Source: an uncultured Dehalococcoidia bacterium
GTDB lineage: Bacteria; Chloroflexota; Dehalococcoidia; UBA2247; RBG-13-53-26
Direction: 5' to 3'
NCBI GenBank assembly: GCA_964423835.1
Contig: CAYRGJ010000006.1
Coordinates: 11,284 to 75,283 of the forward strand
Length of the DNA: 64,000 nt
The translations under genes and the position numbers were made by a program. Below are positions 4,662-59,203 of the stretch, one piece after another (position 1 is the stretch's first letter; each line of letters starts with the position of its first letter). The notes under the pieces are model-generated. The model saw only the letters and a list, made by a program, of their open reading frames with translations, was not told the DNA's origin and searched no databases.

Positions 4662-4690
4662 TTGTGAGTATACGATACTCGAAGTATAAT
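4662..4690 (+). promoter_or_regulatory. Sigma70-like promoter TTGTGA-17nt-TATAAT with operator box copy 1 (4666..4684) filling the spacer
   Basis: TTGTGAGTATACGATACTCGAAGTATAAT, 66 nt upstream of the ATG at 4756. The core GAGTAT-ACG-ATACTC is a perfect inverted repeat. Confidence 0.6.
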
Positions 4691-5928: not shown

Positions 5929-5937
5929 ACCTCAGGC

Positions 5938-21734: not shown

Positions 21735-23171
21735 TTACAGCGCGGGCCTGACCTTCCAGAAGTAGCCCAGGATGCCATGGGCCTTGTCGGCGTACCGCCT
21801 CCTGAAGGTCATCTCCACGGGCATGTCTATCTTGAGCGACTCGGGCTCGGCGTCGGTGATGTCCAGCAGAAACCGGCCGCCGCCATCCCAGTCAATCACC
21901 CCGTACATCTCCGGGGGGCTGACGCTGAAAGCCAGACTGTCGCTGGTGTAGCTGAACAGGCGGGCCTTCTTGTCGGCAAAACGGTACTCCTCCATCTGGT
22001 CGACCGCTCCGCACTCGGGGTTGACGCAGATCCGCTGCGCCGGGTACTGGGGCGTGCCGCATTTCCGGCATTTCGACCCGTAGAGCGCCATGATCTCCTT
22101 CCGGTCTCTCCACAGCAGCGTGACCAGCGTGGGGCCGGTCTCTCCCCGGATCCCCTGCTCTGTGGGCAGCACGTCCCGAAGGGCCAGGTACCTCTCGTAG
22201 CTGGCCAGGTCCTTCTTCAGGGCCAGGTGCTTCTTCATTCCCCGCCTGTCTCCGGCGCCGGCGATGTCCTTGGTCACCTCGAAGAACACGGCGTCGCTGC
22301 CGTTGCCGTAGCTGGCTACCAGTATCCTGTCTCCGGGCTTGGCCTCCTGCAGGGCGGCCACCAGCATCATCAGGGGGTGGGCCGCTCCGGAATCGCCGAC
22401 GGTGGTCAGCTGCTCAGGCTGGATCTGCTCCGGCTTGAAACCGCACGACTTGCCTATGGCGGCGTGCTCCCGGACGTAAAGGCAGGGATAGATGACTTTG
22501 GCGAAGTCCTTGGGGCTCAGCCCGTATTTCTTCATCAGGCCGGAGATGGCCTGCGCGATGAACTTGGTGTACCCCTCGTCGCGGATCCACCGGTCTTCAG
22601 CCGTATGAACGAACCGGTCATCCTCGGCTCTCCACCGGTCGGTGAAGTCGCGGGTCACGGAGTAAGAGCCCCCCAGGGAGGCGATCACCTTGCTGTCACC
22701 GATCACGAAGGCGGCCGCTCCATCCCCGTAGTTCCCTTCCTCGAAGCTACCCGGCTTGGCCACCCGGCAGTCGGAGGCGCAGACCAGCACCTGCTTCGCC
22801 GAAGCTCCATTCACCGCATCGCAGCCCGCGATGAGAGCGGCGGTGCCCGCCTTGGACGAGTCGGTGAAATCGGCGGTCCTGATATCGCCGTTGAGGTCCA
22901 GCGCGGCCGCGACGATGCCGGCGTCCTGCCTCTCCCTGTAGGGAGCGGTGGTAGTCGCCAGGTACAGGGCCTCCAGCGCCTCCCTGCCGACTCCCGTCAG
23001 GGCATCGAATCCCGCGGCCACCGCCATGGTGACGCTATCTTCATCGTAGTTGGCCACAGCCTTTTCGCCCGCGACCCCGGTCCCGCTGAACCAGCCCATA
23101 GCTGCAGTTACCGTCTTGCGGCTGAGACGGTACCGAGGCACATACGCCCCGTAAGAAACGATACCTACCAT
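21735..23171 (-). CDS. HMG-CoA-synthase-like (thiolase superfamily) domain fused to a C-terminal DUF35 Zn-ribbon/OB-fold
   Basis: N-terminus MVGIVSYGAYVPRYRL is typical of archaeal-type HMGCS. The C-terminus carries a CRKCGTPQYPAQRICVNPECG ribbon. The active-site position reads DSSKAGTAAL (Ser where Cys is expected). Confidence 0.75.
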   Translation of the reverse strand: MVGIVSYGAYVPRYRLSRKTVTAAMGWFSGTGVAGEKAVANYDEDSVTMAVAAGFDALTGVGREALEALYLATTTAPYRERQDAGIVAAALDLNGDIRTADFTDSSKAGTAALIAGCDAVNGASAKQVLVCASDCRVAKPGSFEEGNYGDGAAAFVIGDSKVIASLGGSYSVTRDFTDRWRAEDDRFVHTAEDRWIRDEGYTKFIAQAISGLMKKYGLSPKDFAKVIYPCLYVREHAAIGKSCGFKPEQIQPEQLTTVGDSGAAHPLMMLVAALQEAKPGDRILVASYGNGSDAVFFEVTKDIAGAGDRRGMKKHLALKKDLASYERYLALRDVLPTEQGIRGETGPTLVTLLWRDRKEIMALYGSKCRKCGTPQYPAQRICVNPECGAVDQMEEYRFADKKARLFSYTSDSLAFSVSPPEMYGVIDWDGGGRFLLDITDAEPESLKIDMPVEMTFRRRYADKAHGILGYFWKVRPAL

Positions 23172-24503: not shown

Positions 24504-25427
24504 CTACTCCTTCTTCTTCGTCTTCTTCTTCGTCTTGTCGTAGTACTTGGGAGGATGTTTGACGAACCGGTCCTGCATCCCGTGCAGCGAGTCCTTGAGG
24601 CCCTGATTCCGCCGCTCCTTGAAGAAGCTGTACTCATCCTCCTCCCAGCGCAGATTGGTGAACAGGGTGTGCGAGAAGTACGCGGCGCTGACGCTGGCGG
24701 TATGCATCCCCATTATGTTCAGCCAGAGCTCCATGGTGGCCTTGCCGATGGCGATCCCGTCCCTGGGCAGCTTGGCCAGGTCCTCCGCCAGGTCCCAGAC
24801 CTCTCTCTCCAGCCGGGCCGCAGGCACCGACATGGTTACCAGGTTCATGTCCGCCGCCTCTTTGCCGGTGAATCTCCGGGCCGTGTAGATCAGGTCCCGG
24901 GCCCTTCTCAGCCCCACCGACAGGATGAGCGACGGCACGAAGGGATTGGCGCTGCCCACTGTCCCGATTCTCTCCTCAATGAAGCCCAGCTCGGCGTCAT
25001 CAGCCACGATGGCGAAGTCACAGAAGTGGAGTATCATGGTCCCGGCGCCCAGGCAATAGCCCTGGGCCACCCCGATGGTGAGCTTGGGGCAGTACAGGAT
25101 GCGGCACCAGTCCTGCATGAATCTCTTGTCGTACTTTAGCCTGATGCGCTCACTGGGGCGGCGCTCGCCCTTGCCGCCGGTCCCGAAGCCGTAGACGAAG
25201 CCCGCCTGAGACAGGTCTTCACCGGCGCAGAAGTGCTTCCCGGCTCCCCTGATGATGATGACCTTGACCTCATCGTCGTCTTCCGCTTCCGTCATGGCCC
25301 TCAGCATGTCGCTGAACACACCCTCATTGGTGCCCATCATGTTAAGGACATTCAGTTTCTCCGGCCGGTTGAGCGTGATGGCAGCTACGTTCCCCTTCTT
25401 CTCATACAAGACGTACTGGTACTCCAT
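24504..25427 (-). CDS. Enoyl-CoA hydratase/isomerase family protein with a Lys-rich C-terminal tail
   Basis: Trimmed to ATG 25427 (MEYQYVLYEKKGNVAAITLNRPEKLN). FCAGEDL crotonase motif. Ends KTKKKTKKKE. Confidence 0.8.
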   Translation of the reverse strand: MEYQYVLYEKKGNVAAITLNRPEKLNVLNMMGTNEGVFSDMLRAMTEAEDDDEVKVIIIRGAGKHFCAGEDLSQAGFVYGFGTGGKGERRPSERIRLKYDKRFMQDWCRILYCPKLTIGVAQGYCLGAGTMILHFCDFAIVADDAELGFIEERIGTVGSANPFVPSLILSVGLRRARDLIYTARRFTGKEAADMNLVTMSVPAARLEREVWDLAEDLAKLPRDGIAIGKATMELWLNIMGMHTASVSAAYFSHTLFTNLRWEEDEYSFFKERRNQGLKDSLHGMQDRFVKHPPKYYDKTKKKTKKKE

Positions 25428-25511
25428 CCGACCTCCTCTTCTTGAATCCGGCTCCCGCTTCTTGAATCCGGCTTCCCCCGGAGAGGCCCCGCCATGGGGC
25501 CGCCATGTTAT

Positions 25512-25530
25512 GAGTATACGATGATCGAAC
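25512..25530. promoter_or_regulatory. Operator box copy 2 (GAGTATACGATGATCGAAC), upstream of the minus-strand gene run
   Basis: Intergenic, 85 nt upstream of start 25427. On the minus strand the box contains TATACT, a possible -10. Confidence 0.55.
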
Positions 25531-25622
25531 TGTAATTCCGAATCATAGCACGGCATTTGCCCGGCGTCAACTGCCGGCCGCCCGGCCGATTTGGCGGTCT
25601 ACGGTGACAGCGCGAGGGGCCA

Positions 25623-26180
25623 CTAGCCTGCTCCAAGCTGCACATCATCCTGGGCCGAGTCCCGGTCCGGCCCCCCCCAGCCATACGGAGCCGAAAGGCC
25701 GCTCTTTAGCTCCTCGATGGCCTTCTTCAGCAGTTTCTCCAGCGCCGCCTCCACCGTCTCGCTCTCTTTCGGGGTGAGCTGTGACAGGATTCTGGCCACG
25801 GCCCCCGCTTCCTTCTGCCGCTGGAAAGCCCTTTCGCCCTTCTCGGTCAGCAGGATGCGGGATACGTTCCTCCGTTTGGAGTCTCTCTTGCGGCGCACCA
25901 GGCCTTGCTTCTCCATGCGATCCAGCAGGTCCGACACCGTGTGCGGCCTCCGGAAGAGCAGCCTGGCCAGATCGGCCGGCGTTGGGGGCTCCCTGGAGAT
26001 CTTCACCCAGTACAGCACCGCGGCCTGGATCATGGTGAGGCCCAGGGCCCTCATCTCCGCCTCCGCGACCCTGATCACCACCCAGTACGCCTGGTTGAAT
26101 GTGTTCCAGAAGGGTCCGTACCCCTGACCGGCGGCAATCGACTCAACATCTCCCGCTACCTTCTTCTTGGATGCTCTCAA
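25623..26180 (-). CDS. MarR-family transcriptional regulator
   Basis: 185 aa with a winged-helix pattern (LTMIQAAVLYWV...PTPADLARLLFRRPHTVSDLLDRMEKQGLVRR). GAGGAGG RBS. Confidence 0.85.
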   Translation of the reverse strand: MRASKKKVAGDVESIAAGQGYGPFWNTFNQAYWVVIRVAEAEMRALGLTMIQAAVLYWVKISREPPTPADLARLLFRRPHTVSDLLDRMEKQGLVRRKRDSKRRNVSRILLTEKGERAFQRQKEAGAVARILSQLTPKESETVEAALEKLLKKAIEELKSGLSAPYGWGGPDRDSAQDDVQLGAG

Positions 26181-26232: not shown

Positions 26233-26251
26233 GAGTATACGATACTCGAAC
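26233..26251. promoter_or_regulatory. Operator box copy 3 (GAGTATACGATACTCGAAC), upstream of marR
   Basis: 53 nt upstream of the marR start. TATACT reads toward marR on the minus strand. Confidence 0.6.
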
Positions 26252-26363: not shown

Positions 26364-26382
26364 CTTCGAGTTTCGTATACTC
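26364..26382. promoter_or_regulatory. Operator box copy 4 (CTTCGAGTTTCGTATACTC, reverse orientation), upstream of the mutase gene
   Basis: 79 nt upstream of ATG 26461. TATACT (26376-26381) reads toward the mutase gene. Confidence 0.6.
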
Positions 26383-26460: not shown

Positions 26461-28068
26461 ATGGCCTACAAAAGCGATGGGCAGGTACAGTCGCCATCAG
26501 GGATTCCCATCAAGGACATTTACACCCCGGAGGACGTCAAGAGCATCAACTATGAGAAGGACATCGGCTCGCCCGGGCAACCCCCCTACACCAGGGGAGT
26601 CTACGCCAGCATGTACCGGGGGCAGCTGTGGACCATCCGGCGCCTGACGGGGTACGACAGCCCGGAGGCCACCAACGCCCGCTACAAGGAAGAGTACGCC
26701 CTGGGCCAGACGGGCTTCTCCATCGCTCCGGATATCTCCACGGCCTCCGGAATGGACCCGGACGACCCCCGGGTCGAGCACGACATCGGCCACGCCGGGG
26801 TCCCCATCTATTCCATCGAGGACATGGAGGCAGTGTTCAAGGACCTGCCCATAGAGAAGTGCTCCACCTACCTGGCCGATCGCGTCTCCGGCCTGCTCAC
26901 CCCGGCCTACTTCGCCATGGCCCAGAGGCGCGGGATACCTCTGGAGAGGTTGAGAGGGACCACGGCCTATGACATGCTCACCTGGAGCTCGATGGAGTGC
27001 GCCAACCAGCCGCCGCCGGAAGCCTATCTCCGGCTGGAGGTGGACCTGATAGAGTGGTGTGCCCAGCATGCACCGCGCTGGTACCCCATATGCATGAACT
27101 CCTACAACCCCAGGGATAACGGCATCAGCGCCATCCAGGAGCTGGGCATGCTCATGGCCGACGCCATCCAGATCTGCGAAGAAGGGAAGCGCCGCGCCCG
27201 GGTCCCCATGGACACGTTCTGCAAGAGGTTCGCCTTCAACATGGCGGCGCACAATGACCTGTTCGAGGAGGCCTGCAAGCTGCGGGCGGCGCGGCGCATG
27301 CTGCGCAAGATCATCAATGAGAGGTACGGGGTCCAGGACCCATCGTGCGGGCAGTTCCGGGTGCACGTCCAGACCTCCGGCTCCACGCACACTCACCAGG
27401 AGCCGCTCAACAACGTCATCCGCATTGCCTACCAGACTCTGGCGGCGGTGCTGGGCGGGGCCCAGTCCATACATGCCAATGGCTACGACGAGGCGGTATG
27501 CCTGCCCACGGAGCAGGCCATGCTGCTGGCCATCCGGACGGAGCAGATCGTCGGCCTGGAGACGGGCGTGACAAACACCATAGACCCGCTGGGCGGCTCG
27601 TACTACGTGGAGTCTCTCACCAACCAGATCGAGGAAAGGGCCTGGGAGTACGTCAAGAAGATCGAGGACCAGGGCGGCCTCATGAAGGCCATTTCCAATG
27701 GCTGGATCCACCGCGAGTACAAGCAAGCCATAGTGGACTACGACGGCAAGCTGAAATCGGGCGATATCACCATCGTCGGCGTCAACAAGTTCCGCCTCGA
27801 TCCGGACAAGGTCCCCTACAAGGTGCCCATCTTCAAGTCCGACCGCAGCTCCGTCGAGGTCCTCAAGAAGAGGATCAAGAAGCTCCGGGAGACCCGGGAC
27901 AAGGCCCGACATGCCGCGGCCATCAAGAGCTTCGAAGAGGTTCTCCGCACCGACGCCAACTCCTTCCCGGCCAGCCAGGAGGCGGTGGCCGCCCATGCCA
28001 CCCCGGGGGAGATGGCCGATGTGGTCATGAAGGTCTACGGCAAGTGGACCTACCCTATAGGTGTCTAA
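26461..28068 (+). CDS. Acyl-CoA mutase large (substrate-binding TIM-barrel) subunit, divergent, no B12-binding domain
   Basis: 535 aa; AAGGAGG RBS; PPYTRGVYASMYRGQLWTIR and GQTGFS motifs like methylmalonyl-CoA mutase. Ends before the region where the cobalamin-binding domain would be. Confidence 0.8.
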   Translation: MAYKSDGQVQSPSGIPIKDIYTPEDVKSINYEKDIGSPGQPPYTRGVYASMYRGQLWTIRRLTGYDSPEATNARYKEEYALGQTGFSIAPDISTASGMDPDDPRVEHDIGHAGVPIYSIEDMEAVFKDLPIEKCSTYLADRVSGLLTPAYFAMAQRRGIPLERLRGTTAYDMLTWSSMECANQPPPEAYLRLEVDLIEWCAQHAPRWYPICMNSYNPRDNGISAIQELGMLMADAIQICEEGKRRARVPMDTFCKRFAFNMAAHNDLFEEACKLRAARRMLRKIINERYGVQDPSCGQFRVHVQTSGSTHTHQEPLNNVIRIAYQTLAAVLGGAQSIHANGYDEAVCLPTEQAMLLAIRTEQIVGLETGVTNTIDPLGGSYYVESLTNQIEERAWEYVKKIEDQGGLMKAISNGWIHREYKQAIVDYDGKLKSGDITIVGVNKFRLDPDKVPYKVPIFKSDRSSVEVLKKRIKKLRETRDKARHAAAIKSFEEVLRTDANSFPASQEAVAAHATPGEMADVVMKVYGKWTYPIGV

Positions 28069-28146
28069 GGAGAGCGCCCGGAGGCAAGTCTGCGGTGGCA
28101 GCGGGCCGGTGGCGAGGGTCACTAAGTAACGGAACGGAGCTGAGAG

Positions 28147-29337
28147 TTGGAGAAGGCGATATCAGGCATCAGGGTCCTTGATTTCTCACGGTGGTTTGCC
28201 GGGCCTTATGCAGCCACGCTGCTGGCGGCCATGGGCGCCGAAGTGATCAGGGTGGAAAGGCCTGCCGGCGAGGAAGAGAGGAACTTCGGGCCTTTCGCTC
28301 CCAACGGTCAGGCCATGCTGGCCCTGGTGACTCTGCAGAACCGGAAAGGCATTACGTTGGACCCCATGTGTGGTCAGGGCCGGGGGATCATGGAAAGGCT
28401 GGTGCGGAAGAGCGACGTGGTGCTGCACAGCTACGTCAGCGGCTCGCCGGAAGAAAGCCTTTTGAGCTACGGGTCCCTGGTGAAGCTGAATCCGGCCATC
28501 ATCGTGGCCAAGGTCTCTGGCTTCGGCTCCACCGGGCCGTACGCCCAGCGGCCGTGCTTCGATACCATTGCCCAGGCGCTCTCGGGGTCCATGAGCTACA
28601 CCGGGTTCCCCGAGACCGCCCCCACCAGGTCGGGCTCCGCCTGGGTGGACTTCAGCACTGGCTCTCATGCCGCCCTGGGCATCATGTTTGCTCTCTACGA
28701 GCGGCAGAGGACAGGCACAGGGCAGTTCATCGACGTTGCCCTGCTGGACGTGGCCGTGTCCTGCGTGGCCGGGCTCGCGGTGGCGGCGGAGTACAAGGTG
28801 GCGGGCATAGTCCGCGGCCGGCAGGGGAACTACAGCTACTACAACTACACCAACTGCGTCAGGGCCAGGGACGGGTGGGTCATGATCGGCATCACCGGGA
28901 CGGCCATCTGGAGGCGGTTCCTGCGGGCAGTCGGGAGAGAGGAACTGAAGGAAGACCCCCGGTTTCAGAGCGACAGGCTCCGCTACGACAACCGCCTGGC
29001 CATTCAGGCGATCGTGGAGGAGTGGCTCAAAGACAGGCCGGTGGATGAGGTGATCAGGCTTCTGGAAAAGGCCCGGGTGCCCTGCTCCAAGGTGAACAGC
29101 ATCGCCGAGATGGTAGAAGACCCGCAGGTCAGGGCCAGGGACATGCTGATCGACATGGAGTACCCCGGCATCGGCAGGGTGCCGCTGCCCGGCGTGCCCA
29201 TAAAGATGTCCCGGACTCCGGGGACGATCGACATGCCCGCGCCCCAGGTGGGGGAGCACAACGCTGAGGTCTATGGCCGGCTCCTGGGCCTGACGAAGGA
29301 GGACCTGGCCGGGCTGAAGGCGGAAGGGGTTATCTGA
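28147..29337 (+). CDS. Family III (CaiB/BaiF) CoA-transferase
   Basis: TTG start 28147. GIRVLDFSRWFAGPYAATLLAAMGAEVIRVERP. Confidence 0.85.
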   Translation: MEKAISGIRVLDFSRWFAGPYAATLLAAMGAEVIRVERPAGEEERNFGPFAPNGQAMLALVTLQNRKGITLDPMCGQGRGIMERLVRKSDVVLHSYVSGSPEESLLSYGSLVKLNPAIIVAKVSGFGSTGPYAQRPCFDTIAQALSGSMSYTGFPETAPTRSGSAWVDFSTGSHAALGIMFALYERQRTGTGQFIDVALLDVAVSCVAGLAVAAEYKVAGIVRGRQGNYSYYNYTNCVRARDGWVMIGITGTAIWRRFLRAVGREELKEDPRFQSDRLRYDNRLAIQAIVEEWLKDRPVDEVIRLLEKARVPCSKVNSIAEMVEDPQVRARDMLIDMEYPGIGRVPLPGVPIKMSRTPGTIDMPAPQVGEHNAEVYGRLLGLTKEDLAGLKAEGVI

Positions 29338-30784
29338 GGGGCGGCGGTCCGCTGTTCCGGGTGTGGTACTGCCTCACGCCGGCCACAGCTTTGGCCGCCC
29401 GCGCCATGGACGGATAGACCGGTATGCCCGCCTCGGACAGCCGGCCCTCCAACTCCAGGCGGTCCGTCTCCAGGCAGCCCGGCGGGGATACCACAATCAC
29501 CGGTTTGCCGGCCGCCCGGCTGTCCTTCAGGATCACGCTGCCGGCTGAATCCGCGGTTTCCCGGCCCATAAGGTCCAGCAGGGCGTCGACATCCTGGTAT
29601 ACCACGATCAAATCCAGGCGCCGGTCCGTGGCGGCGAGGTCCATCGCCCGCTGGAAGGCCCGCAGGACGCTGGGGCCAGGATTCGCTCCCGGCTTGCCGC
29701 CCGGCTCGACGGGGCACCGGCCGGGTGACGGCCGCCCCTTCCGGCCTGTACCGGCCGAGAAGACTGAGACCTCGATCCCGAAGAGGCGGCACTCATCCTC
29801 CGCCAGCCGGGCCTCGCTCTCTGCGTCGCCAGTCAACCCGCAGATGAGCCCGAGGCGGGCCTTCCGGATGGGGGCAGCCCTCTGGAGGAGCAGGAGAACG
29901 TCGGCCATCTCGTCCAGGCCCCGGACTTCGAGCGCGCCGGCCTGCTTCAGCGCCGCCGTCCAGACGGCCGCGGAGGTCCTCATGGCCCCGGTGTGAGAGC
30001 CGGCCGCCTTGGCGCCGGCTTCGGTGGCGCCTCCCTTCCAGACCACCACGGGCTTCCTGGCGGACGTGGCCCGCATCACCTGAAGCAATCGCCGGGTGTC
30101 CCGCGGTCCTTCCAGGTAGAGACCGATGGGGCCGGTCTTGGGATCGACGGCCATGTACTCCAGGAAGTCGGCGCTCCCCAGGTCGCAGCAATTGCCAATG
30201 CTGGCGATCTTGCTGAAGCCGATGCCCCGGGTCAGGCCCATCACCAAGAGCTTCTGGGCATGCCCGCCGCTCTGGGATATGAAGCCCACGGACCCGGGCC
30301 GGCCCACCACACTGGAGGCCCCGTAGGGCGTTTTGTGCTCGGGGCAGGACAGGCCAATGCAGTTGGGCCCGATGATCCGGAATCCCCCCTTTCCAGCCCT
30401 CCGGGCCATCTCCTCTTCAACCTGAATCCATTCCGGCTCGCCGGTTTCCCGGAACCCGGCGGTGAAGAAGTGCACTCCGCGCACCCTCTTGGCGGCGCAG
30501 TCATCCAGAAGATCCATAACAAAGGCCCGGGGGATGCAGGAGATAACCAGGTCCACCGGGCCCGGGATGGCCTGCAGATTGGGGTATATCCTGGCTCCCA
30601 GGAGCTCGCCGCCGGCGGGGTTGACGGGATAGACCCGGCCCTCGAAACTGGACTCCATCAGGGCCTTGACCCAGAGCGAGCCCATCTTTGCGCTATCCCG
30701 GGAGACGCCGACCACGGCGATGGAACGGGGATAGAAGATGTGCTCGAATTCCTTGAGCCTGCTCTCAGGCAACTGGTACTGCAA
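29330..30784 (-). CDS. ADP-forming acyl-CoA synthetase alpha-like / CoA-binding protein (no ATP-grasp part)
   Basis: FYPRSIAVVGVSRD CoA-binding start. GPNCIG. Phosphohistidine-loop-like GSHTGAM. Its stop overlaps the convergent CaiB gene by 8 nt. Confidence 0.75.
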   Translation of the reverse strand: MQYQLPESRLKEFEHIFYPRSIAVVGVSRDSAKMGSLWVKALMESSFEGRVYPVNPAGGELLGARIYPNLQAIPGPVDLVISCIPRAFVMDLLDDCAAKRVRGVHFFTAGFRETGEPEWIQVEEEMARRAGKGGFRIIGPNCIGLSCPEHKTPYGASSVVGRPGSVGFISQSGGHAQKLLVMGLTRGIGFSKIASIGNCCDLGSADFLEYMAVDPKTGPIGLYLEGPRDTRRLLQVMRATSARKPVVVWKGGATEAGAKAAGSHTGAMRTSAAVWTAALKQAGALEVRGLDEMADVLLLLQRAAPIRKARLGLICGLTGDAESEARLAEDECRLFGIEVSVFSAGTGRKGRPSPGRCPVEPGGKPGANPGPSVLRAFQRAMDLAATDRRLDLIVVYQDVDALLDLMGRETADSAGSVILKDSRAAGKPVIVVSPPGCLETDRLELEGRLSEAGIPVYPSMARAAKAVAGVRQYHTRNSGPPPLR

Positions 30785-30960
30785 TCGTCATGTCCCTCGA
30801 AATTGACCGGCCCTGGCCACCAGTATAGTCAGGGGATGCCCTCGATGGCAAAGGCGGCGCGGTCCGGGTATCGCCCGGCTATCACTTCACGTAGGCTGCC
30901 TGGGCCTGCTTGACACAGGCCTATTATTAGTGAGACGGAGTCTGGACTTGGAGGCGCGTG

Positions 30961-31644
30961 ATGGCGACAGAGAGGGTTTTCACCGACGAAGAGCTGCAGG
31001 AGATGGGCCGGCGCACTGTTGACCTCATCCGGGATGCCATCGATGAGGGCGACCTGGAGCGGGCGAAGAAGCTGGCCGGCCGCATGCAGCACGAGTTCTC
31101 CCTGATGCACGACATGTACGTTGACTGGGTGGCCGGGCTTATGGACTACATCTACCGGAGCTGCGGCGAGGAGGCTCTCTGCCAGGCGCTGAGGAAGGCC
31201 ATTGGCGGCCAGCAGGGGCCCCTGGCCGACGTCAGGGGCGTCGATTTTAAGAAGCGGGTGCAGACCACTGCCACCTTCATGAGGGGACATCTGGAGCGGA
31301 TGAAGGTGGAGGAGGATGACGAGAAGGTGAGCATCACCATGCTGCCGTGCGGCAGCGGACAGCGGCTCTGCCAGAAAGGCGCATACGGCCCCCCCCGCAA
31401 CTTGGCCAGGGTGGCCGGGCCGCACCCCATAACCTGGGGCCTGTCCGGCTTCCCCATCTACTGCACCCACGAGCCGGTGCTGGAGATGCTGGCCATCGAG
31501 CAGTTGGGCTACCCCCTGGCGGCGGGCTTCCCGGCCAGAGAGATAGCCGGCGAGTCCTGCACCCTGTGCATCTACAAGAGGGTAGAGGACACGCCGGAGG
31601 AGGTCTACAGCAGGCTGGGAAAGCGAAAGCCCCAGAGAGAATAG
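30961..31644 (+). CDS. Cys-rich hypothetical protein
   Basis: 227 aa from ATG 30961 (GGAGG 7 nt upstream). Cys motifs LPCGSGQRLCQ, IYCTHEP, ESCTLCIY. No family recognised. Confidence 0.6.
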   Translation: MATERVFTDEELQEMGRRTVDLIRDAIDEGDLERAKKLAGRMQHEFSLMHDMYVDWVAGLMDYIYRSCGEEALCQALRKAIGGQQGPLADVRGVDFKKRVQTTATFMRGHLERMKVEEDDEKVSITMLPCGSGQRLCQKGAYGPPRNLARVAGPHPITWGLSGFPIYCTHEPVLEMLAIEQLGYPLAAGFPAREIAGESCTLCIYKRVEDTPEEVYSRLGKRKPQRE

Positions 31645-31698: not shown

Positions 31699-33063
31699 CT
31701 AGTCCGGCCAGTCTTCGCCCGGAAGAGGCAGCATGAGCGGCTGGGGCTCGTCGTCCTTCCAGTACAGCTTGACTATGGGATGTCCCTTATCCCGCAGCAG
31801 CCTCTTCAGCTCCGCGGCGTCCACCGTGTCTTCGTTGGTGGCTATCTTGTCGTAGATCTCCTCGGGAATCACCTGGGCCACTTCCTTCTTCAGGTCCAAC
31901 GGCATCCAGACTATCCGGTTCCAGCCGCCGTCCCCTTTGAGGAAGTTCTTGCTGGCCATCCCGGCGATGGACAGCCCCTTGAAGCCGTGGTTCTGGGCCC
32001 CCCCGGAGATCGAGCCGGCCAGGGTCGAGAACTTCACCCCCAGCGGCGTCATGCCCGTGTAGCGCCGCATGGCCAGGCCGATACCGTCGACCTCTGGGAT
32101 ATAGAAGGATGCAGCTTCGAAGCAGCCGCAGTTGGTGGTGGGGTACCTGATGCTGCTGTAGATGTTGACCTGCTTCACCAGGTGGTTGCATCGCTCGTAG
32201 ATGGCCCGGTCGACACCGGCGTAGTGTCCCCTGGCTTCATCGATGCACTCTCCCTTGGGGATGCGGAAGACGTAGCCCTCGGGGTCCATCTCGCAGGTGA
32301 TCTTGGCGGAGTCATAGCCGATGATGCCGCAGTAGGGCAGGGCGCTCGGCGTCAGCACGCAGGCATGGTTGGGCGCCAGCGACTTGCATATGGTGCACCC
32401 GTAGAAGGTGTCCACGTCCTCATCATCGTACAGCTCCTTGGCGCTGATGACCTTGTGCTTGTCCCTGGCCCATTTCAACACCGGCTGCAGCATGTCCAGC
32501 CCGCCGGCCTCGGGAGAGCCCATGGCCCAGAAAAAGGACACGGCGTCCACCTGCGGCACCAGGGTCCGAGCCGTGGCATAGCAGAACTGAGATATCTTGG
32601 CGAAGGTGAGGCGGTCGGCCACATCCTTGCTGATCCTGATCCACAGGGCGTCCGGCGAGCCGAACAGCATGAAGCCCTCCAAGCCCTGGAGCGCCGTGCC
32701 TATCTGCCGCGAGACATAGCCCTGATGCCCCTGGTTCAGCGTCCGGCCGTAGACCCTGATGGTGAACACCCCGGGCAATGAAGTCCCCGGTTTGACCTCA
32801 TTCACGTCCGGGCCGATCAGCTTCACTTCGCCGTCCCTGACCTTCTCCGGATCCTCCTCGATGTAGAACACAGAGACCATGTTGTAGTCCCATTTGGGGC
32901 CGCCCAGCTCGACCTGCATGTCTGCCTTCTTCACCTCGCCCAGCCACCTCAGGCCGAGGCCGATGTCATCGAGGCCATCCCAAAGATGGTCCAGCTCGGT
33001 GGGCAGCTGAAATGTCCTCCCCGGCGGGAGCGGGGCTACTGATTCTTCATCTGGAACTGCCAT
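31699..33063 (-). CDS. Acetyl-CoA synthase catalytic (A-cluster) subunit homologue, AcsB C-terminal/CdhC-type, truncated
   Basis: 454 aa. C223-x2-C226-x8-C235-x9-C245 and N-C312-G-C314-FE, 67 residues after C245. The spacing is identical to the A-cluster ligands of Moorella AcsB as I recall them. Confidence 0.8.
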   Translation of the reverse strand: MAVPDEESVAPLPPGRTFQLPTELDHLWDGLDDIGLGLRWLGEVKKADMQVELGGPKWDYNMVSVFYIEEDPEKVRDGEVKLIGPDVNEVKPGTSLPGVFTIRVYGRTLNQGHQGYVSRQIGTALQGLEGFMLFGSPDALWIRISKDVADRLTFAKISQFCYATARTLVPQVDAVSFFWAMGSPEAGGLDMLQPVLKWARDKHKVISAKELYDDEDVDTFYGCTICKSLAPNHACVLTPSALPYCGIIGYDSAKITCEMDPEGYVFRIPKGECIDEARGHYAGVDRAIYERCNHLVKQVNIYSSIRYPTTNCGCFEAASFYIPEVDGIGLAMRRYTGMTPLGVKFSTLAGSISGGAQNHGFKGLSIAGMASKNFLKGDGGWNRIVWMPLDLKKEVAQVIPEEIYDKIATNEDTVDAAELKRLLRDKGHPIVKLYWKDDEPQPLMLPLPGEDWPD

Positions 33064-33086
33064 CCGGGCCCCCTCTCTCCATCATG

Positions 33087-33105
33087 CTTCGACTATCGTA
33101 TACTC
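33087..33105. promoter_or_regulatory. Operator box copy 5 (CTTCGACTATCGTATACTC), 24 nt from the ACS-like start codon
   Basis: Reverse complement is GAGTATACGATAGTCGAAG. It lies in the divergent intergenic region 33064..33415. Confidence 0.6.
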
Positions 33106-33197
33106 ACTCCCTGCTCTGTGTCAAGACTTCCGCGCGGCCGGGCCTCCCTCGTTGACTTGGTTCGGGGTCCGTGCTATAGTCGCAGCAGTGCCTGATG

Positions 33198-33216
33198 GTT
33201 CGAGTATCGTATACTC
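33198..33216. promoter_or_regulatory. Operator box copy 6 (GTTCGAGTATCGTATACTC)
   Basis: Perfect core in reverse orientation. TATACT (33210-33215) reads toward the plus-strand gene at 33416. Confidence 0.6.
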
Positions 33217-33415
33217 AGAACGGCTGGCATCGGGGGTACCGCTCTGTGCCTCGCCACGAGGTGATCAGCGCTCTCTGCCGACCATCACGCCAAGGCACGC
33301 GTCCTGTGCGGCGTTGCCGGCGAAGAAGGAAGCCTTCCGCCGGAAAAGAGGCGGCCGGCCTCGTTAGGAATGGCTGGCGCGCCCTGCTGAGTATTGGAAA
33401 GGAGATGTGACAGAT

Positions 33416-34075
33416 ATGCCACTGGAAAACCTGACCCTGGAGCAGCTGAAGAAGGAGCGCCCCGACCTGGTGGCCGCGCTGGAGGAAGAGATCAAGTCGA
33501 CGGGAAAAAAGGAGCTCGAGGACCTTAGCGGTCCCTGGAACCCCAATCTGACCTTCGACGACCTGTCCAAGGAGTTCCTCCTGAAGCTGATGAACATCTG
33601 GCAGTATGCCTGGATAACTCTCAGCGGATGCTGGTATGACCAGATTCGGGCCAGGGCCGGCTTCGATGCCGCCAACGAGTGCGAGCTCGCGGCCTGGCTG
33701 GCGATGGCCAGGAAGGTCAACCCCAGATACGCCAAGCTGGGGAACATCCAGCTGCACACGGTGCTCGATTCCATGAAGGCTTTCCAGCTGCCCCTGGACA
33801 ACATCATGAAGGGCAAGAACGCGGGACTGTACGAAGGGGATTTCGAGGTCATCAACCCCAACAAGGTCCACGTGACCTACAAGAGGTGCGTTGCCCTGGA
33901 AGGGCTGGAGAGGAACTGGCCGGAGAGGATAGTGCCTCTGTGCCAGAAGCTGGAGAAGCCCATAATCGAGGCGTACTCCCTGAACCCCCGGTTCGAGGCC
34001 GTGATGCTCAAAGCGCCTCCGCGCAAGAGCCAGGATGAAATCGCCTGCGAGTGGATGTTTCAGCTGAAGGAATAG
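33416..34075 (+). CDS. Conserved hypothetical protein, paralogue of 2381..2935 (possibly DUF6125-like)
   Basis: ORF 33407..34075. ATG 33416 is preferred (GGAG at 33401-33404), but the start is uncertain. The C-terminal signature LKAPPRKSQDEIACEWMFQLKE matches LKLPPRSSGEEIPCQWEFRIDD. Confidence 0.6.
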   Translation: MPLENLTLEQLKKERPDLVAALEEEIKSTGKKELEDLSGPWNPNLTFDDLSKEFLLKLMNIWQYAWITLSGCWYDQIRARAGFDAANECELAAWLAMARKVNPRYAKLGNIQLHTVLDSMKAFQLPLDNIMKGKNAGLYEGDFEVINPNKVHVTYKRCVALEGLERNWPERIVPLCQKLEKPIIEAYSLNPRFEAVMLKAPPRKSQDEIACEWMFQLKE

Positions 34076-34112
34076 GCGGCCGGCCAGAGCTGCGGCGTCG
34101 TGCGCATTTCGG

Positions 34113-35348
34113 CTACTGCAGTGTGGGCCGTCCCCGGTCCTGGCCGGTTCTGGGCCTTGGGGTGCCCAGGAAAGCCAGGATGCCGCCCACCACCAGAAGG
34201 GCGCCGCCGAAGGCGTAGGCCAGGGACACTGCGATGGCGCCGCCGATACCGCTGACCAGCATGAAGACCCCTGCCGCCCTGGGCTTCGGTATGGAGATGG
34301 CCCCCCCGACGACGCCCAGAATCGACAGCCCGAGGGCAACGTAGCCCAGGTCGGTGATAGAGGCTCCCTCGATGTCGCCGAAGGCGGTGCTGATCCCTCC
34401 CATCACTATCGCCACTGTGGCGCCGATGCCGCCCGCGATTCCCCCGATGACGCCCAGGATAGTAGCGGCAATCCGGAGCGCCCGGGAGTGATGACCGGGG
34501 GCCGGAGCTGACGCCCCGGCGCCGCCGTTGGCCGTCTGCCGCGGCGCCTCCCTGCCTTTCCTGGCGGCCGCGCCCTGGGCTGCCACCTCCCTGGACCTCA
34601 CCGGAGGCCCCGATGGCGCCTTCTGCGGCTGCAGGCCGGCCGGCGCTGCTATGCCGGCGGATGAAGCGGCCCGCAGGAATCCCAGCAGGGGAGCCCTGGC
34701 GCTGGCATTCAGGACCATGATGTCCAGGGGTTCCGGCCGCTGCCGGAGGGACAGCCTCAGAAGGCCATCCAGCTGGCGCAGGTCCGAGTGCGCCTGGCTG
34801 CCCTTGAGCTCGATCACCTCGGCCAGGTCCCCATACTCTATCTGCAACAGGACGTCCAGCCTGCGGCTGCCCGGCCTTGAGGTGAAGATGATCAGCCGAT
34901 CGTTGGTTCCCATGAACCCGGCGATGGGTAGCATCGCGCTGGCATCGAAACCCTGCCAGAAGACATGGAAGTCAATGCTGGATCGGCCCGCCAGCACAAT
35001 GCCTTCGCCCTTGCGAGGCGACAGGGACCGGCTCAGGTCGCCGCGGATGTGCTCCTCGAAGGCCTCTGGTCCCCAACCGACGGCCCTGAACGCGGAGGCC
35101 CACTCCGCCGCGGATTCGGGCGTGGCTGGCGGCGGGGTGGCGCTGGCTTCAACATCCCTGGCCTCTTCCAGCCTGGCGCCGCACGCCCCGCAGAAGTTCA
35201 GGTTGGGATCAGAGGGCGTCCCGCACTCGGGGCAGGCCAGCATCAGCCTGGCGCCACACATGGCGCAGAAACGACTGCTGTTCTGGTTCTCTGCCGAACA
35301 GGCCTGGCACGTTGTGACCGCCTCAGTTCTACAGATAGTCAGTGTCAT
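34113..35348 (-). CDS. Double zinc-ribbon membrane protein (hypothetical)
   Basis: N-terminal CQACSAEN..FCAMCGARL and CPECGTP..FCGACGARL ribbons. Gly-rich multi-pass hydrophobic C-terminus. Confidence 0.6.
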   Translation of the reverse strand: MTLTICRTEAVTTCQACSAENQNSSRFCAMCGARLMLACPECGTPSDPNLNFCGACGARLEEARDVEASATPPPATPESAAEWASAFRAVGWGPEAFEEHIRGDLSRSLSPRKGEGIVLAGRSSIDFHVFWQGFDASAMLPIAGFMGTNDRLIIFTSRPGSRRLDVLLQIEYGDLAEVIELKGSQAHSDLRQLDGLLRLSLRQRPEPLDIMVLNASARAPLLGFLRAASSAGIAAPAGLQPQKAPSGPPVRSREVAAQGAAARKGREAPRQTANGGAGASAPAPGHHSRALRIAATILGVIGGIAGGIGATVAIVMGGISTAFGDIEGASITDLGYVALGLSILGVVGGAISIPKPRAAGVFMLVSGIGGAIAVSLAYAFGGALLVVGGILAFLGTPRPRTGQDRGRPTLQ

Positions 35349-35401
35349 AGAGTAAGACTCTAGGAGACCTGTACGCCAATGTCAAGGAGCACGTAAAGTG
35401 C

Positions 35402-35839
35402 CTATCGCCTGGCCACCATGACGGCTGCTTCATACTCAAGGACCTTCTCGCTATTCTGGTTGTGCATGGTGACCGTGATTCTGGCGATCCCACGGTCCGC
35501 CTTGGTCCTCGACGGACGCTTCCCGGTGCACTCCGTGACGCAGACCAGGCGGTCGCCTGGCCGGACCGGACGGAAGAACCGCGCTTTCCATTCACTGCCG
35601 CCCACAAACACCCCCCGCTCGCGGATGGGATTGGGAGCCGAGCTGGCGATCCCCAGGACATACAGCGCCGGCGCAATCAGGCCGCCATGCGGGGACCGTT
35701 TGGCGGCCTCACGGTCTGTGTGCATGGGCAGAGGGTCCCATTTCCGGGCGAAGGAGACCAGCTCCTCTTCGGTCACCAGGTATTCCGGAGCTGCCCATGG
35801 TTCATTCAAGGGAATGTCATCCAGATACCACTCCTCCAT
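35402..35839 (-). CDS. MaoC-like dehydratase (hot-dog fold)
   Basis: Trimmed to ATG 35839 after AGGAGG. WDPLPMHTD motif. Confidence 0.75.
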   Translation of the reverse strand: MEEWYLDDIPLNEPWAAPEYLVTEEELVSFARKWDPLPMHTDREAAKRSPHGGLIAPALYVLGIASSAPNPIRERGVFVGGSEWKARFFRPVRPGDRLVCVTECTGKRPSRTKADRGIARITVTMHNQNSEKVLEYEAAVMVARR

Positions 35840-36004
35840 TGGCGGTCGCACCTCCTTCTTCAGGCGGGGGCCTGCACACCCGCCCACACCGCTAGCCTCG
35901 CCTTCGGCAGACCATCGGGCGCCAGCTCATAGAACATGACGACCTTCATAGATATCCTTTCCGGGTTGGGTTGTGTCCGTATGCGGCGTGACCCTGGGGG
36001 ATTC

Positions 36005-36079
36005 TGGTAGCAGGGAGTGGATTTGAACCACTGACCAAGGGCTTATGAGTCCCCTGCTCTACCTCTGAGCTACCCTGCC
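36005..36079 (-). tRNA. tRNA with CAT anticodon (tRNA-Met; elongator type likely, Ile2 not excluded), CCA encoded
   Basis: Reverse complement folds by eye: GGCAGGG-TA-GCTC-AGAGGTA-GAGC-A-GGGGA-CTCATAA-GCCCT-TGGTC-AGTGG-TTCAAAT-CCACT-CCCTGCT-ACCA. Confidence 0.85.
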
Positions 36080-47135: not shown

Positions 47136-50100
47136 CTAATCGATGGAGTAGGCATTGCGCATCACCTCCGACACGGTTGTCTTCCCGGCCTTGACTTTCT
47201 GCATGCCGTCCTTGAAGAGGGTGACCATGCCCTCCTTGACAGCCTGGTTCCTCAATTCCGTCGTTGTCGCTCCTTTCAGCACCATGGCCCTGGTGGTGTC
47301 GGTCATCGCCAGTACTTCGTAGATGCCCAGCCGGCCCTTGTAGCCGGAGAAGTTGCAGAGGTCGCATCCGGTCCCGGATACGAAGCTCTCCAGCTTCTCC
47401 CCCATGACGCTTTCGTAGGCGGCTGCCTCTACCTCGGTGGGCTTGGTCTCCACGGCGCAGTTGGCGCATACCCGCCGTGCCATCCGCTGGGCCAGTGTTC
47501 CGGTGATGACCGAAGCCACCATGAAGGCCTCGACGCCCAGGTCGAGCAAACGGTAGACGACGCTCACCGCGTCGTTGGCATGGATGGAGCAGAGCACGGT
47601 GTGGCCCGTGAGGGCCGCTTTAACCGCGATCGAAGCCGTCTCCGCATCACGGATCTCGCCCACCAGAATGACGTCCGGGTCGAGACGCATCATGGAGCGC
47701 AGCACACTGGCGAAGGTGAGGCCGGCCTTCGGGTTCACCTGGATCTGCTTGATGCCCTCGAAGCGGTACTCCACCGGGTCCTCGGCGGTGATGATATTGC
47801 GCGTCACCTTGTCCATGGTGTTCAGGGAGGCGTACAGGGTGGTGGTCTTGCCGGCTCCGGTGGGCCCGCTGACGCAGATCATTCCGAAGGGGACGGCCAG
47901 CATCTTCATGTACTTGGCCAGGCAGTCTTCCGTGAAGCCGAGCTGGGGCAGCTCCATCACGGCCATCGACTTGTCCAGGATCCTCATGACCACCGTCTCG
48001 CCGTGAACGGTGGGGCTGGTGGCCACGCGGACATCCACTCCCTTCCCTTTCACGTCCAGCGAGAACTGGCCGTCCTGGGGACGGAGGTGGTCCGCGATGT
48101 TCAAGTCCGACATGACCTTCACTCGAGAGGTCAAAGGAGGGTGGATCTTGATGGGCAGAGACATGACCTCCTGCAGCACGCCGTCTATGCGGTAGCGAAC
48201 CCGCAGCCGCTTCTCCTCGGGCTCTATGTGGATGTCGGAGGCCCGCGCCTTGACCGCCTCCTCCACGATCAGGTTCAGGGCGGCCGCCACCGGGGCGTTG
48301 GCGGTGGAGGCCACCAGGTCCACCCCCTGGGCCGCGTCGGCTGCAGTCTCTATTCGAGAGATCTGATCGGCGATCTGGCCGAAGCCCTTGTAGTTGAAGT
48401 CGATGGCATCCAGGATTTCCTTCTGGTCAGCGGCCACGGCTTTGATCCGCATCTTGCTCTGCATCTCCAGGACCTGGATGGTGGCCAGGTCGCTGGAGTT
48501 CACCATGGCTACCTCGAGTATGCCCTCGTTCACGCTGATGGGCAGCACCGTGAACCTTCTGGCCGTGGATTCCGGGATGGCCTGCAGCGCCTCGGGGCGA
48601 GCCGCCTTGGAGAGCTTCACCTTCGGCTTCTCCACCACCTCTTCCACCACCGGCTTCGCCGGCTCGGCGGGCTTGTCCGGAAGCTTGGCCTTGGCTGCCA
48701 GCCCCTGCCGCTTGTCGATGCCGGTCTTATCCAGCGTGGGCTTCAGGTACTGGGCATTCGCCGCCCCGTTCGGCGGCCCGCCGACCACGCCCTGTTTGGA
48801 GTCCCGGTCCGCGGCCGGCAGTTTTGGCGGGACCGGCTGCCGGGCCGCCGAAGGCAGCACATTCCCCTGCCCGGCTTTCCCCGGGATGGCCGGCCTGGCC
48901 TTCTGCGGCTCCTCAGCCGGCGCGTTGCCGGAGGCCCTGTCATCCGCCGGCTTTGCCTCGGCCGCCTTCGGCGCCTCTGTCCTGGCGGCCTCCGCCTTTG
49001 CGGCCTCTGTCCTGGCGGCCTGCGCCGGCCCTGCGGCCGGCTTGCCGTTGGCGGGCCTGCTATCGGCGCCCATGGGCCCCTTGCCGTTGGCCGGCTTGCC
49101 GTTGGCGGGCCTGCTATCGGCGCCCGCGGCCGCTTTGCCGTCCTCGACTGCCTTCGTCTGCGGCGTGCCCGGCTTATCGGCTGCCGGCACGGTCCCGGAG
49201 TCCGGCGGTTTGGTCTGAGGCACAATGACCGGCTTGGCCATGAACGGGCCAGGCCTGGCAGCAGTGGCCTGGGCTTCGGCGCCGGCCGGCTTTCCGGCGG
49301 CCTCGGCCTGGGCCGTCTCACCCGAGGGCCTGGCTTCGGTGGCCTCGTTACCGGGGGCGGCCGCCTTGCTGTCGGGCAGTCTGGCGCCACCGTTCGCCTT
49401 GTCCGGCGCCGCCGGCGTTGCGGATGCCTGGCCGGCAGCAGCCTCCGTGGCCGCGGCGGCCGCGGTCCTGGCGCCAACCGGAGCCGGGGTCTTGTCCGGC
49501 GGCTTCGGCCTCACCTGCGGACTCAGGAATTGGTCTATCACGCTGCGCATCGAGAACTGCTTCGCCCGGGAGGGCGGCTCCAGGGGGGCAAACACGTTAC
49601 CCCCGGGTGGGGTGGCGGTACTGGGTGCGGTGGCGGTACCGGGCGGGGTGGCCGGCCCTGCCTTGCCGGCGGGCGGGCTCGCCCCCCCTTCCGGCGCGGC
49701 CGGCTTGATCTCGGAAACCACGATGGTCTTCTTGCGGTCACCGGGCTTGTCCGGCGTTTCCGGTGGCGGCACGGGTGGTGGTGCGGCCGCCCGGGGCGGT
49801 TTCGGGGCGTCCTCCAAGCCCGGCCTCTGGGAAGGAGAGGGGAGAGGCTCCAGGCCCTCCGGCACGACCTCCCGGGGCCGTCCATCGAGGCCGATCACCT
49901 CGATCCTCTTCTCCTGCGCCAGCTTCCTGGCTTCGTCCGTCAACCCTTTCGGGACCAGGAGCATCTTTTCGGTGATGCCGGCGTCCCGGCACTTGTCTTC
50001 AAACAGGCTGACCTCCGTATGGTCCACGGCGTCGCTGTAGAGGTAGTCTATGCCCAGCCTGGAAAGCACAAATCCGTCATCCCAGATGGCTATGGCGCCG

Positions 50101-59037: not shown

Positions 59038-59079
59038 GTTATCAGCATCGCCCCGGTCACGGAAGCGACCCACGTCTCG

Positions 59080-59155: not shown

Positions 59156-59159
59156 AAGA

Positions 59160-59168: not shown

Positions 59169-59203
59169 GTCTCCGGTTCCCCCGCTTCCGGAAAGACATA
59201 GCT

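Follow-up and report, generated by a model that had tools for sequence, protein, structure and literature searches.

What does an A-cluster subunit of acetyl-CoA synthase (ACS) do when it is encoded on its own among genes for acyl-CoA metabolism? The question is raised by a 64-kb stretch of contig CAYRGJ010000006.1 from an uncultured Dehalococcoidia bacterium (the window, meaning the whole 64,000 nucleotides (nt) analysed), in which a cdhC-like gene for a Ni-Ni-[4Fe-4S] subunit is found without a gene for any partner of an ACS. A sequence-only reading of this DNA had presented the gene as a stand-alone, N-terminally truncated ACS homologue under catabolic control. The reading that we favor, with a probability of roughly 55%, is that it encodes the A-cluster subunit of a non-canonical Cdh-like system that has no corrinoid protein, and that it has been rewired into a MarR-type acyl-CoA regulon. 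The partners of the protein, a CdhA-like subunit and a small protein termed s71, are probably encoded elsewhere, in the rest of the contig or of the genome.

The product of 454 amino acids (aa) contains six A-cluster Cys residues (positions 223, 226, 235, 245, 312 and 314) with spacings of 3, 9, 10, 67 and 2, and these ligands were invariant across an alignment of 46 sequences. The spacing equals that of Moorella AcsB, where the established numbering is C506/C509/C518/C528/C595-G-C597; the sequence-only reading had recognized this match and had placed the C312-G-C314 codons where we find them, at 32130..32122. Profile hidden Markov models were matched above their curated cut-offs both in Pfam (ACS_CODH_B_C, PF19436, 8.9e-65 and 219.1 bits against 25; CdhC, PF03598, 4.2e-18 and 66.1 bits against 24) and, by small margins, with the NCBIfam cdhC model TIGR00316 (360.0 bits against 355.95) and PRK04456 (382.6 bits against 372), so that the protein would be automatically annotated as CdhC, if barely. 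The top match among solved structures was the beta subunit of the Methanosarcina thermophila acetyl-CoA decarbonylase/synthase (ACDS) (9c0s_E, 4.6e-81), aligned over query residues 43-435. Bacterial ACS came next, matched in its A2-A3 region (target residues ~323-723); these alignments begin near residue 323 of the target and residue 36 of the query. An AlphaFold2 model of the protein, built from 46 homologues with a mean predicted local distance difference test score (pLDDT) of 91.7, was compared by Foldseek with truncated Moorella ACS 3git (template modelling (TM) score 0.78/0.84, root-mean-square deviation 2.9 Å) and 6ytt (TMq 0.80), and fits the ACS A2-A3 fold. A missing profile match or a non-superposable fold had been named beforehand as grounds for giving up the assignment, and the opposite was found in both cases. 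The N-terminal A1 domain of bacterial AcsB (about 730 aa), with its docking surface for carbon monoxide dehydrogenase (CODH) and its CO tunnel/alcove, is absent from the window protein. The protein is thus truncated relative to bacterial AcsB only, and the comparison with archaeal CdhC in length, which had also been drawn, was the sounder one: judged by its alignments, the A1-less form is the native CdhC architecture and no truncation event. Taken together, these results show the gene to have the coding capacity for an intact A-cluster subunit of CdhC architecture.

The likeness to CdhC of M. thermophila (9c0s/9c0t), which comprises the two-domain architecture without A1, an identical A-cluster ligand pattern and the top rank by structure (2.5e-42) as well as by sequence, nevertheless has its limits. 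Identity is only 34-40%, and the M. thermophila protein has Phe195 and a Ser before Cys-Gly-Cys where the window protein has Leu and Asn. In a neighbour-joining tree, a long branch parted a TNCGCFE clade from canonical HTSCGCFE CdhC, and the window protein, which carries TTNCGCFE and SLAPNH, nested in Dehalococcoidia clade A. Further signatures of the clade are Asn311 before Cys-Gly-Cys (Ser in canonical CdhC), His359 (canonical Asp) and a Gly-Gly insertion. In the 9c0s_E alignment, Leu229 (codon 32377-32379) stands opposite M. thermophila F195, the equivalent of Moorella F512; Dehalococcoidia clades A and B have Leu here, sister clades have Ile, Val or Asn, and Phe occupies the position in the deeper branches as well as in canonical CdhC. 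F195 is the sole CO-alcove residue of CdhC, and its mutation lowers the affinity for methyl-Co(III) (PMC11321310). As for bacterial AcsB (Moorella 1oao/3git, Carboxydothermus hydrogenoformans 1ru3), its A2-A3 domains superpose on the window model, four of its five CO-alcove residues are missing from the window protein by architecture because there is no A1 domain, and the fifth, F512, is replaced by Leu. Homologues of ~455 aa are abundant in metagenome-assembled genomes (MAGs) of Chloroflexota/Dehalococcoidia at 60-88% identity, and others at 45-53% identity occur in Syntrophales, Desulfobacterales, Thermodesulfobacteriota and the alkane-oxidising archaea Alkanophagales and Syntrophoarchaeum. 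Tree and signatures together show that the window gene, by descent as reconstructed from its sequence, belongs to a distinct CdhC-like clade spread over Dehalococcoidia, Syntrophales, Desulfobacterales/Thermodesulfobacteriota and alkane-oxidising archaea.

Is isolation a property of this clade? By tblastn, 27 genome and 59 metagenome loci of relatives (designated L with a number) were mapped; 70 distinct CdhC-like genes in them had 300 nt or more of sequence on their downstream side. A gene for s71, a 71-73-aa, 8-Cys B-box/zinc-ribbon protein, lay within 400 nt downstream in 61 of the 70, and a CdhA-like gene came next in 50 of the 57 with enough flank. Among relatives of at least 58% identity, s71 was directly downstream in all those with a visible downstream flank, and the CdhA-like gene was present wherever the flank was long enough. 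The nine exceptions to the s71 rule all had 53% identity or less; some show the order CooC-like, CdhC-like, VWA, s71, CdhA-like, and the flanks retrieved for the others contained no s71 or CdhA-like gene. Many Dehalococcoidia MAGs carry two Cdh-like modules in tandem, in a cluster that begins with MeaB, mutase large subunit, B12-binding small subunit, CdhB-like, a 189-aa unknown and a short-chain dehydrogenase (SDR), continues with CdhC(B), s71, CdhA(B), CdhC(A), s71 and CdhA(A), and has RnfB-like Fe-S, FwdD-like, FwdB-like, ChlD-like VWA, CooC-like ATPase and ChlI/MoxR-like AAA genes on the opposite strand. Clusters in Dehalococcoidia are usually headed by the B12 acyl-CoA mutase and the SDR, and the window protein is the orthologue of CdhC(A). 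The mapping showed that the normal partners of the clade are s71, CdhA-like, CdhB-like, FwdB/D-like and RnfB-like proteins, and CooC-like and ChlI/ChlD-like maturation ATPases. The isolation of the window gene is a local accident of gene order and no family trait, and the term stand-alone, as used in the sequence-only reading, is right for the 64-kb window and wrong as a description of the enzyme. A conserved core was seen in several phyla (L001 16021-21365, L091 2578-13922, L093 8081-19911), which includes an FwdB-like protein (TIGR03129, 297 bits against a cut-off of 328), an FwdD-like protein, an RnfB/CdhE-N-terminal-type Fe-S protein, a ChlI/ChlD-like AAA+/VWA pair and a CooC-like ATPase; L091 additionally encodes an FwdA-type amidohydrolase.

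The CdhA-like partner of the relatives (~820-840 aa) matched solved ACDS alpha subunits at 1e-100 and reached 436-473 bits with the cdhA model TIGR00314, against a cut-off of 781. We aligned 12 CdhA-like sequences from Dehalococcoidia (A and B types), Thermodesulfobacteriota, Desulfobacterales, Alkanophagales and Syntrophales. In all 12, the C-cluster His was replaced by Asp or Asn and the Cys-Cys pair containing the first Cys ligand by Gly-Pro/Ser/Ala/Asn, while the other four Cys were kept. The lost His and Cys residues hold the pendant iron of the CODH C-cluster, and their loss makes ordinary CO/CO2 interconversion by the CdhA-like partner doubtful; on this evidence the partner would be unable to bind a normal C-cluster. 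These partners fit the pattern of CdhA structural groups A-4/A-6, which are bacterial, deep-branching, located beside ACS beta (COG1614) genes and without an assigned function (Inoue et al. 2019, PMC6344411), and share with them the His to D/N change, the loss of Cys1 (P/S-type), the missing D-cluster and an E/F-cluster insert. That study places A-4/A-6 in Wood-Ljungdahl contexts, and the links to s71, FwdB/D-like, chelatase-like and mutase genes are not described in it; the window differs again in having a CdhC-like gene without such a CdhA. The CODH-side partner of the clade has thus already been noted in the literature, where we found nothing specific on the CdhC-like clade or on a link between CdhC and the mutase, and the system as a whole is a new, uncharacterised CODH/ACS variant. 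Neither was a methyl-carrying side found: CdhD/E was missing from the Pfam tables of four loci from four lineages with the same core (L001, L091, L092 and L093), and no subunit of the corrinoid Fe-S protein and no pterin methyltransferase occurred among the 20 recurrent unexplained open reading frame (ORF) families from 26 long loci. Two features, the Leu in place of the gate Phe and the absent corrinoid methyl carrier, speak against the canonical methyl-corrinoid cycle as the chemistry of this system. Recurrent neighbour families included dephospho-CoA kinase/NUDIX proteins, aldehyde:ferredoxin oxidoreductase (flanking L006, 8114-10216) and hydantoinase/acetone-carboxylase-family proteins (flanking L049, 3436-7589).

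In the window itself, 51 genes were called by codon-position GC and scanned with Pfam and NCBIfam, and the Pfam scans detected no Prismane/CODH, CdhD/E, B12-binding, pterin-binding or CbiA/CooC family among them. Six-frame tblastn of the 64 kb with the relatives' CdhA-like, s71, B12-binding, MeaB, CdhB-like, FwdB/D-like, VWA and CooC-like proteins gave no match at E<=1, and no s71 or cdhA remnants were detected 3' of the window cdhC by the same search. The absence of CooS/AcsA, AcsC/AcsD, AcsE and CooC from the 64 kb, claimed at the outset, was thus confirmed, with ~66 kb of the 129.8-kb source contig falling outside the window. Equally confirmed was the monocistronic nature of the gene: its downstream neighbour, at a distance of 54 nt, is convergent with it, and its upstream neighbour is divergent. 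The two flanking unknowns turned out to be a DUF6125 protein and a 228-aa protein that has no Pfam, NCBIfam or PDB relative and lies beside cdhC-like genes in no relative.

Comparison with the relatives points to how the gene became isolated. Nucleotide homology to every orthologue spans 33063/33064 to 31702/31703, which are the gene ends. The window protein ends with WPD, whereas most orthologues run 5-6 residues on (WPDEATSKK) before s71 follows. L032 and L033 (87-88%), which are the closest relatives, share the order CoA-transferase, divergent epimerase-like gene, operator box, DUF6125, cdhC and the s71 start. In the MAG CAYYWI01, an orthologue of the window DUF6125 protein (84%) comes directly after the synthetase-like gene (L097), and CdhC(A) is kept in a standard tandem cluster (L028). 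With the homology stopping at the gene ends and this order in L097, the window locus looks like an insertion of cdhC and the 228-aa gene between the synthetase-like and DUF6125 genes, and the inserted cdhC looks to have gained a new operator-promoter copy. On the evidence of these junctions, the cdhC-like gene alone was relocated in this genome as a single cistron, with loss of its last 5-6 codons. The ratio of nonsynonymous to synonymous substitution rates (dN/dS) against the closest orthologues was 0.10-0.13, indicating purifying selection, and the 17 residues that differ from positions invariant in eight orthologues are mostly conservative changes outside the cluster motifs. A tRNA-Met gene (36005-36079) bounds the acyl-CoA island of the window, and in L097 phage-type integrase and primase/AAA genes (10927-12114) follow the orthologue of DUF6125b; the tRNA-Met/DUF6125 end of the locus has the look of a hot spot for integration or rearrangement. 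In L033 (1-392), a ~30-residue fragment like the start of a B12-binding small subunit (ILMAKPGLEGYGRGLISV...) lies between the mutase 3' end and the CoA-transferase gene, which suggests that the small-subunit gene was truncated when the latter arrived.

Between 4.7 and 35.9 kb, the window encodes mostly acyl-CoA enzymes: acyl-CoA dehydrogenases, enoyl-CoA hydratases, a 3-hydroxyacyl-CoA dehydrogenase, SCP-x-type thiolases with DUF35 partners, a CrtI/CrtO-like flavoprotein, MaoC dehydratases, class I and class III CoA-transferases and an AMP-forming ligase. A 17-mer, AGTATACGATA[CG]TCGAA, was matched six times in the window (at 4667, 25513, 26234, 26365, 33088 and 33199) with 0.02 matches expected, and the aligned sites share TTGTGA-GTATACGATACTCGAAG-TATAAT, in which the palindrome AGTAT-N3-ATACT fills the spacer between the -35-like and -10-like hexamers. 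One copy lies 24 nt from the cdhC start codon, and others belong to marR and beta-oxidation-type operons, all in agreement with the sequence-only reading; the mutase/CoA-transferase operon can now be added. The 30-nt stretch at 4661-4690 recurs upstream of DUF6125-cdhC in L032, without any difference, and in L033, at 97% identity, and the operator was found in these two relatives only, being absent from the more distant ones examined. No riboswitch or other RNA element was detected in 25.5-34.5 kb. As a prediction from these sites, transcriptional control of cdhC in common with thioester catabolism is well supported, and the common operator makes a role in thioester catabolism more plausible than autotrophy. 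The earlier choice of the former over the latter draws support from the operator and from relatives that lie beside acyl-CoA genes without a corrinoid Fe-S protein where this could be checked; to that extent a catabolic, non-autotrophic context is likely. The longest ORF of the enoyl-CoA hydratase (24504-25556) includes the operator box at 25513-25529; translation probably begins only at Met44 of that ORF (MEYQYVLYEKKG..., about 25427), which puts the box ~85 nt upstream.

Combining these results, the reading that we favor would work as follows. The MarR protein would repress all box-bearing units until a pathway intermediate appears, and the A-cluster subunit would then use its proximal nickel for reversible C-C/C-S chemistry, with a CoA thioester as substrate (acyl-CoA <-> CoA + carbonyl + methyl/alkyl). 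It would act in trans with a CdhA-like/s71 partner whose genes lie elsewhere. Acetyl-CoA is the conservative guess for the thioester, and another acyl-CoA could take its place; room for a different acyl-CoA, or for a ketone-plus-C1 reaction, is left by the Leu that replaces Phe, by the missing methyl carrier and by the mutase/SDR head that recurs in the clusters. Several points weigh against this reading. No partner gene lies in the 64 kb, which makes action in trans an assumption, and the NCBIfam score just above the cdhC equivalog cut-off allows for canonical activity. The absence of CdhD/E is taken from the annotation of four loci and the recurrent neighbours of 26, and binding of the boxes by the MarR protein (25623-26180) is suggested by its position only. 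Finally, MetF/MetV-type methylene-tetrahydrofolate reductase genes lie near Syntrophaceae CdhC-like genes (L081 2053-3647, L026), the sole sign of a Wood-Ljungdahl link and a hint of one at least in Syntrophaceae. A bolder version, which we regard as unlikely, holds that the CdhC-like/degenerate-CdhA/s71 clade is a separate nickel enzyme system that would (de)carbonylate non-acetyl CoA thioesters or couple a ketone or alkyl group with C1 without a corrinoid carrier, feeding a novel B12 acyl-CoA mutase and SDR, the window copy then being its lone deployment as a catabolic C-C-cleaving enzyme under an acyl-CoA-responsive repressor.

Two other enzymatic explanations have to be weighed. The protein might be an ordinary ACDS beta subunit in a reverse Wood-Ljungdahl pathway that oxidises acetyl-CoA from beta-oxidation, with cdhA, corrinoid protein and methyltransferase genes elsewhere. 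All ligands are present, the cdhC equivalog cut-off is passed, the regulon yields acetyl-CoA, the reductase genes just mentioned lie near relatives in Syntrophaceae, and cdhC of Archaeoglobus fulgidus is encoded apart from cdhA-cdhBDE (PMC13240472). Set against this are the 12 of 12 CdhA-like partners without two C-cluster ligands, the lack of CdhD/E or a pterin methyltransferase in the annotated loci of relatives or their recurrent neighbours, the Leu in place of the Phe that supports methyl-Co(III) binding, and the long branch to canonical CdhC, which together make this explanation likewise unlikely. The other possibility is a truly stand-alone enzyme, a CODH-less A-cluster subunit that cleaves a CoA thioester with release of free CO, or forms one with its uptake. 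Isolated CdhC and monomeric ACS (e.g. PDB 1ru3) are active in vitro, which counts in its favor, as do the gene's own promoter and operator, its monocistronic geometry, purifying selection and the missing partner within 64 kb. However, every close relative keeps an adjoining s71 and CdhA-like gene, about half of the source contig and the remaining genome lie outside the window, and pairwise dN/dS averages both lineages, leaving constraint since relocation unproven; we find a stand-alone enzyme somewhat harder still to credit.

The remaining alternatives deny the locus a function or a reality. That the gene is a redundant or decaying duplicate, left functionless by a recent rearrangement, could draw on the C-terminus shortened at the breakpoint, on the 17 private changes and on the rearrangement hot spot (tRNA-Met at 36005; integrase beside the L097 DUF6125b orthologue). 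It is very unlikely, given an intact reading frame with all ligands kept, a dN/dS of about 0.1, an acquired promoter that carries the regulon operator, and the mostly conservative nature of those changes and their position outside the cluster motifs. An arrangement unique among about 70 relatives also raised the suspicion of a chimera from metagenome binning or assembly. By contrast, a Logan contig (L094, SRR8925737) is 100% identical to window 32317-36056, and L095 and L096, from two sequencing runs (SRR8925737, SRR8925742), carry the CoA-transferase, the synthetase, the 228-aa gene and the cdhC 3' part in window order. With both junctions found in independent assemblies, an artefact was rejected as next to impossible.

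Known systems offer partial parallels to the reading of a rewired, corrinoid-protein-less Cdh-like subunit. Dehalococcoides mccartyi, with which the window had been compared, reportedly has an AcsB in a CODH-less, incomplete Wood-Ljungdahl pathway for which acetyl-CoA cleavage was proposed, by the account of Zhuang et al. in 2014. That system is said to have a bacterial-type ACS and to keep the corrinoid Fe-S protein and methyl acceptor. By contrast, the window shows no corrinoid protein, and its protein belongs to a distinct CdhC-like clade whose relatives have a non-canonical CODH-like partner, so that the comparison proved weak. Canonical ACDS differs in a similar way: the window gene has no cdhA/B/D/E nearby, and the relatives' CdhA-like proteins are without two C-cluster ligands, with CdhD/E not found. 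A. fulgidus is a precedent for a functional, separated cdhC, although its ACDS is canonical with a complete C-cluster and CdhD/E, unlike that of the window clade. The mutase-SDR head of the Dehalococcoidia clusters resembles an acetone-induced cluster in Desulfococcus biacutus/Desulfosarcina cetonica with MeaB, a two-subunit B12 acyl-CoA mutase, an SDR and a thiamine diphosphate-dependent C1-adding enzyme that yields a branched acyl-CoA (PMC7888143). The C1-adding enzyme there is not Cdh-like, and since the window mutase is without the HcmA signature, we do not press the analogy.

Automated annotation labels the window protein and hundreds of its relatives "CdhC", and surveys count such genes as Wood-Ljungdahl markers. 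If the favored reading is true, too much potential for carbon fixation or acetyl-CoA oxidation is being assigned to Dehalococcoidia, Syntrophales, Desulfobacterota and alkane-oxidising archaea, while an organonickel reaction of the CdhC-like clade would await discovery. The window provides an experimental handle: one cdhC-like gene on its own, under separate control, in a defined regulon whose operator can be recognised.

Table 1. Coordinates of the cdhC-like gene, its motifs, operator boxes, promoter-like sites and neighbours in the window.
Feature	Position	Strand	Remarks
cdhC-like gene	31699..33063	-	ATG start, 454 aa; predicted A-cluster (Ni-Ni-[4Fe-4S]) subunit, A2+A3 domains only
C223-x2-C226-x8-C235-x9-C245 codons	32329..32397	-	[4Fe-4S]/bridging ligands
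N311-C312-G313-C314 codons	32122..32133	-	Cys-Gly-Cys motif for distal Ni
3' rearrangement breakpoint	31699..31703		homology stops at 31702/31703; junction in run assemblies L095 and L096
Operator box 1, AGTATACGATAGTCGAA	33088..33104	-	24 nt upstream of cdhC ATG; overlaps -10 of promoter-like site
Sigma-70-like cdhC promoter, TTGACA-18-TACGAT	33095..33124	-	consensus scan only
Operator box 2, AGTATACGATACTCGAA	33199..33215	-	cdhC/DUF6125 divergent intergenic region
Sigma-70-like promoter, TTGACT-17-TATAGT	33152..33180	+	faces DUF6125 gene, just upstream of box 2; consensus scan
DUF6125 protein	33407..34075	+	divergent from cdhC; V4R/H-NOX-like ligand-binding fold in model (weak matches)
228-aa Cys-containing protein	30958..31644	+	convergent with cdhC
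ADP-forming acyl-CoA synthetase alpha-like protein	29330..30784	-	L097 orthologue directly upstream of DUF6125b orthologue
Family III CoA-transferase	28147-29337	+	follows mutase; operon 26461..29337 downstream of operator boxes
B12 acyl-CoA mutase large subunit	26461-28068	+	86% identical to mutase heading relatives' CdhC-like clusters
Two operator boxes	26234-26250; 26365-26381	+; -	between marR and mutase gene
MarR-family regulator	25623..26180	-	operator boxes in own upstream region; candidate repressor
Operator box, 2 mismatches	25513..25529	+	head of long minus-strand beta-oxidation-type operon (25556 down to 6788)
Operator box	4667..4683	+	inside TTGTGA-N17-TATAAT upstream of acyl-CoA dehydrogenase/SDR operon (4756-6702)

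The window mutase has no B12-binding small subunit or MeaB to pair with in the 64 kb, and NCBIfam gives it a generic domain model only. Its pocket residues, Leu and Ala, match neither methylmalonyl-CoA mutase (Tyr89/Arg207) nor HcmA (Ile90/Asp117), and its QxDILKE motif is divergent. A function as 2-hydroxyisobutyryl-CoA mutase was considered, HcmA being the top PDB match, but was rejected owing to the Ile90 to Leu and Asp117 to Ala replacements. In the protein encoded at 21735-23171, a DUF35/ChsH2 OB-fold and zinc-ribbon are joined to a domain that resembles archaeal-type 3-hydroxy-3-methylglutaryl (HMG)-CoA synthase and scored 238.9 bits with PRK04262 (cut-off 244). Its gene shares an operon with the SCP-x-type thiolases and the CrtO/CrtI-like flavoprotein, hinting that the regulon may handle a branched or isoprenoid-like acid.

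DUF6125 genes occur in the window (33407-34075 and 2255-2935), in L001 (14477-15040) and in L091 (18703-19209), and paralogues recur next to CdhC-like/CdhA-like clusters. The AlphaFold2 model of the DUF6125 protein (pLDDT 89.9) gave weak Foldseek matches (E about 2e-3, TM 0.34-0.56) to H-NOX, Bet3/TRAPPC3 and the MopR phenol-sensor domain. Residues C161, C179, C214 and E168 are invariant, and some homologues are 387-aa double or fusion forms. Elsewhere in the window, a 1162-aa fusion (47136-50624) joins an N-terminal Mrr-type restriction endonuclease domain to MshEN and a T2SSE ATPase of type II/IV secretion, and is adjoined by a gene for a T2SS F-type membrane protein. Two ORFs of 242 and 552 aa at 56698-59232 have an extreme first-codon-position GC (0.89-0.90) and match nothing in Pfam; they may be mis-called frames or else low-complexity proteins rich in Ala, Gly and Pro.

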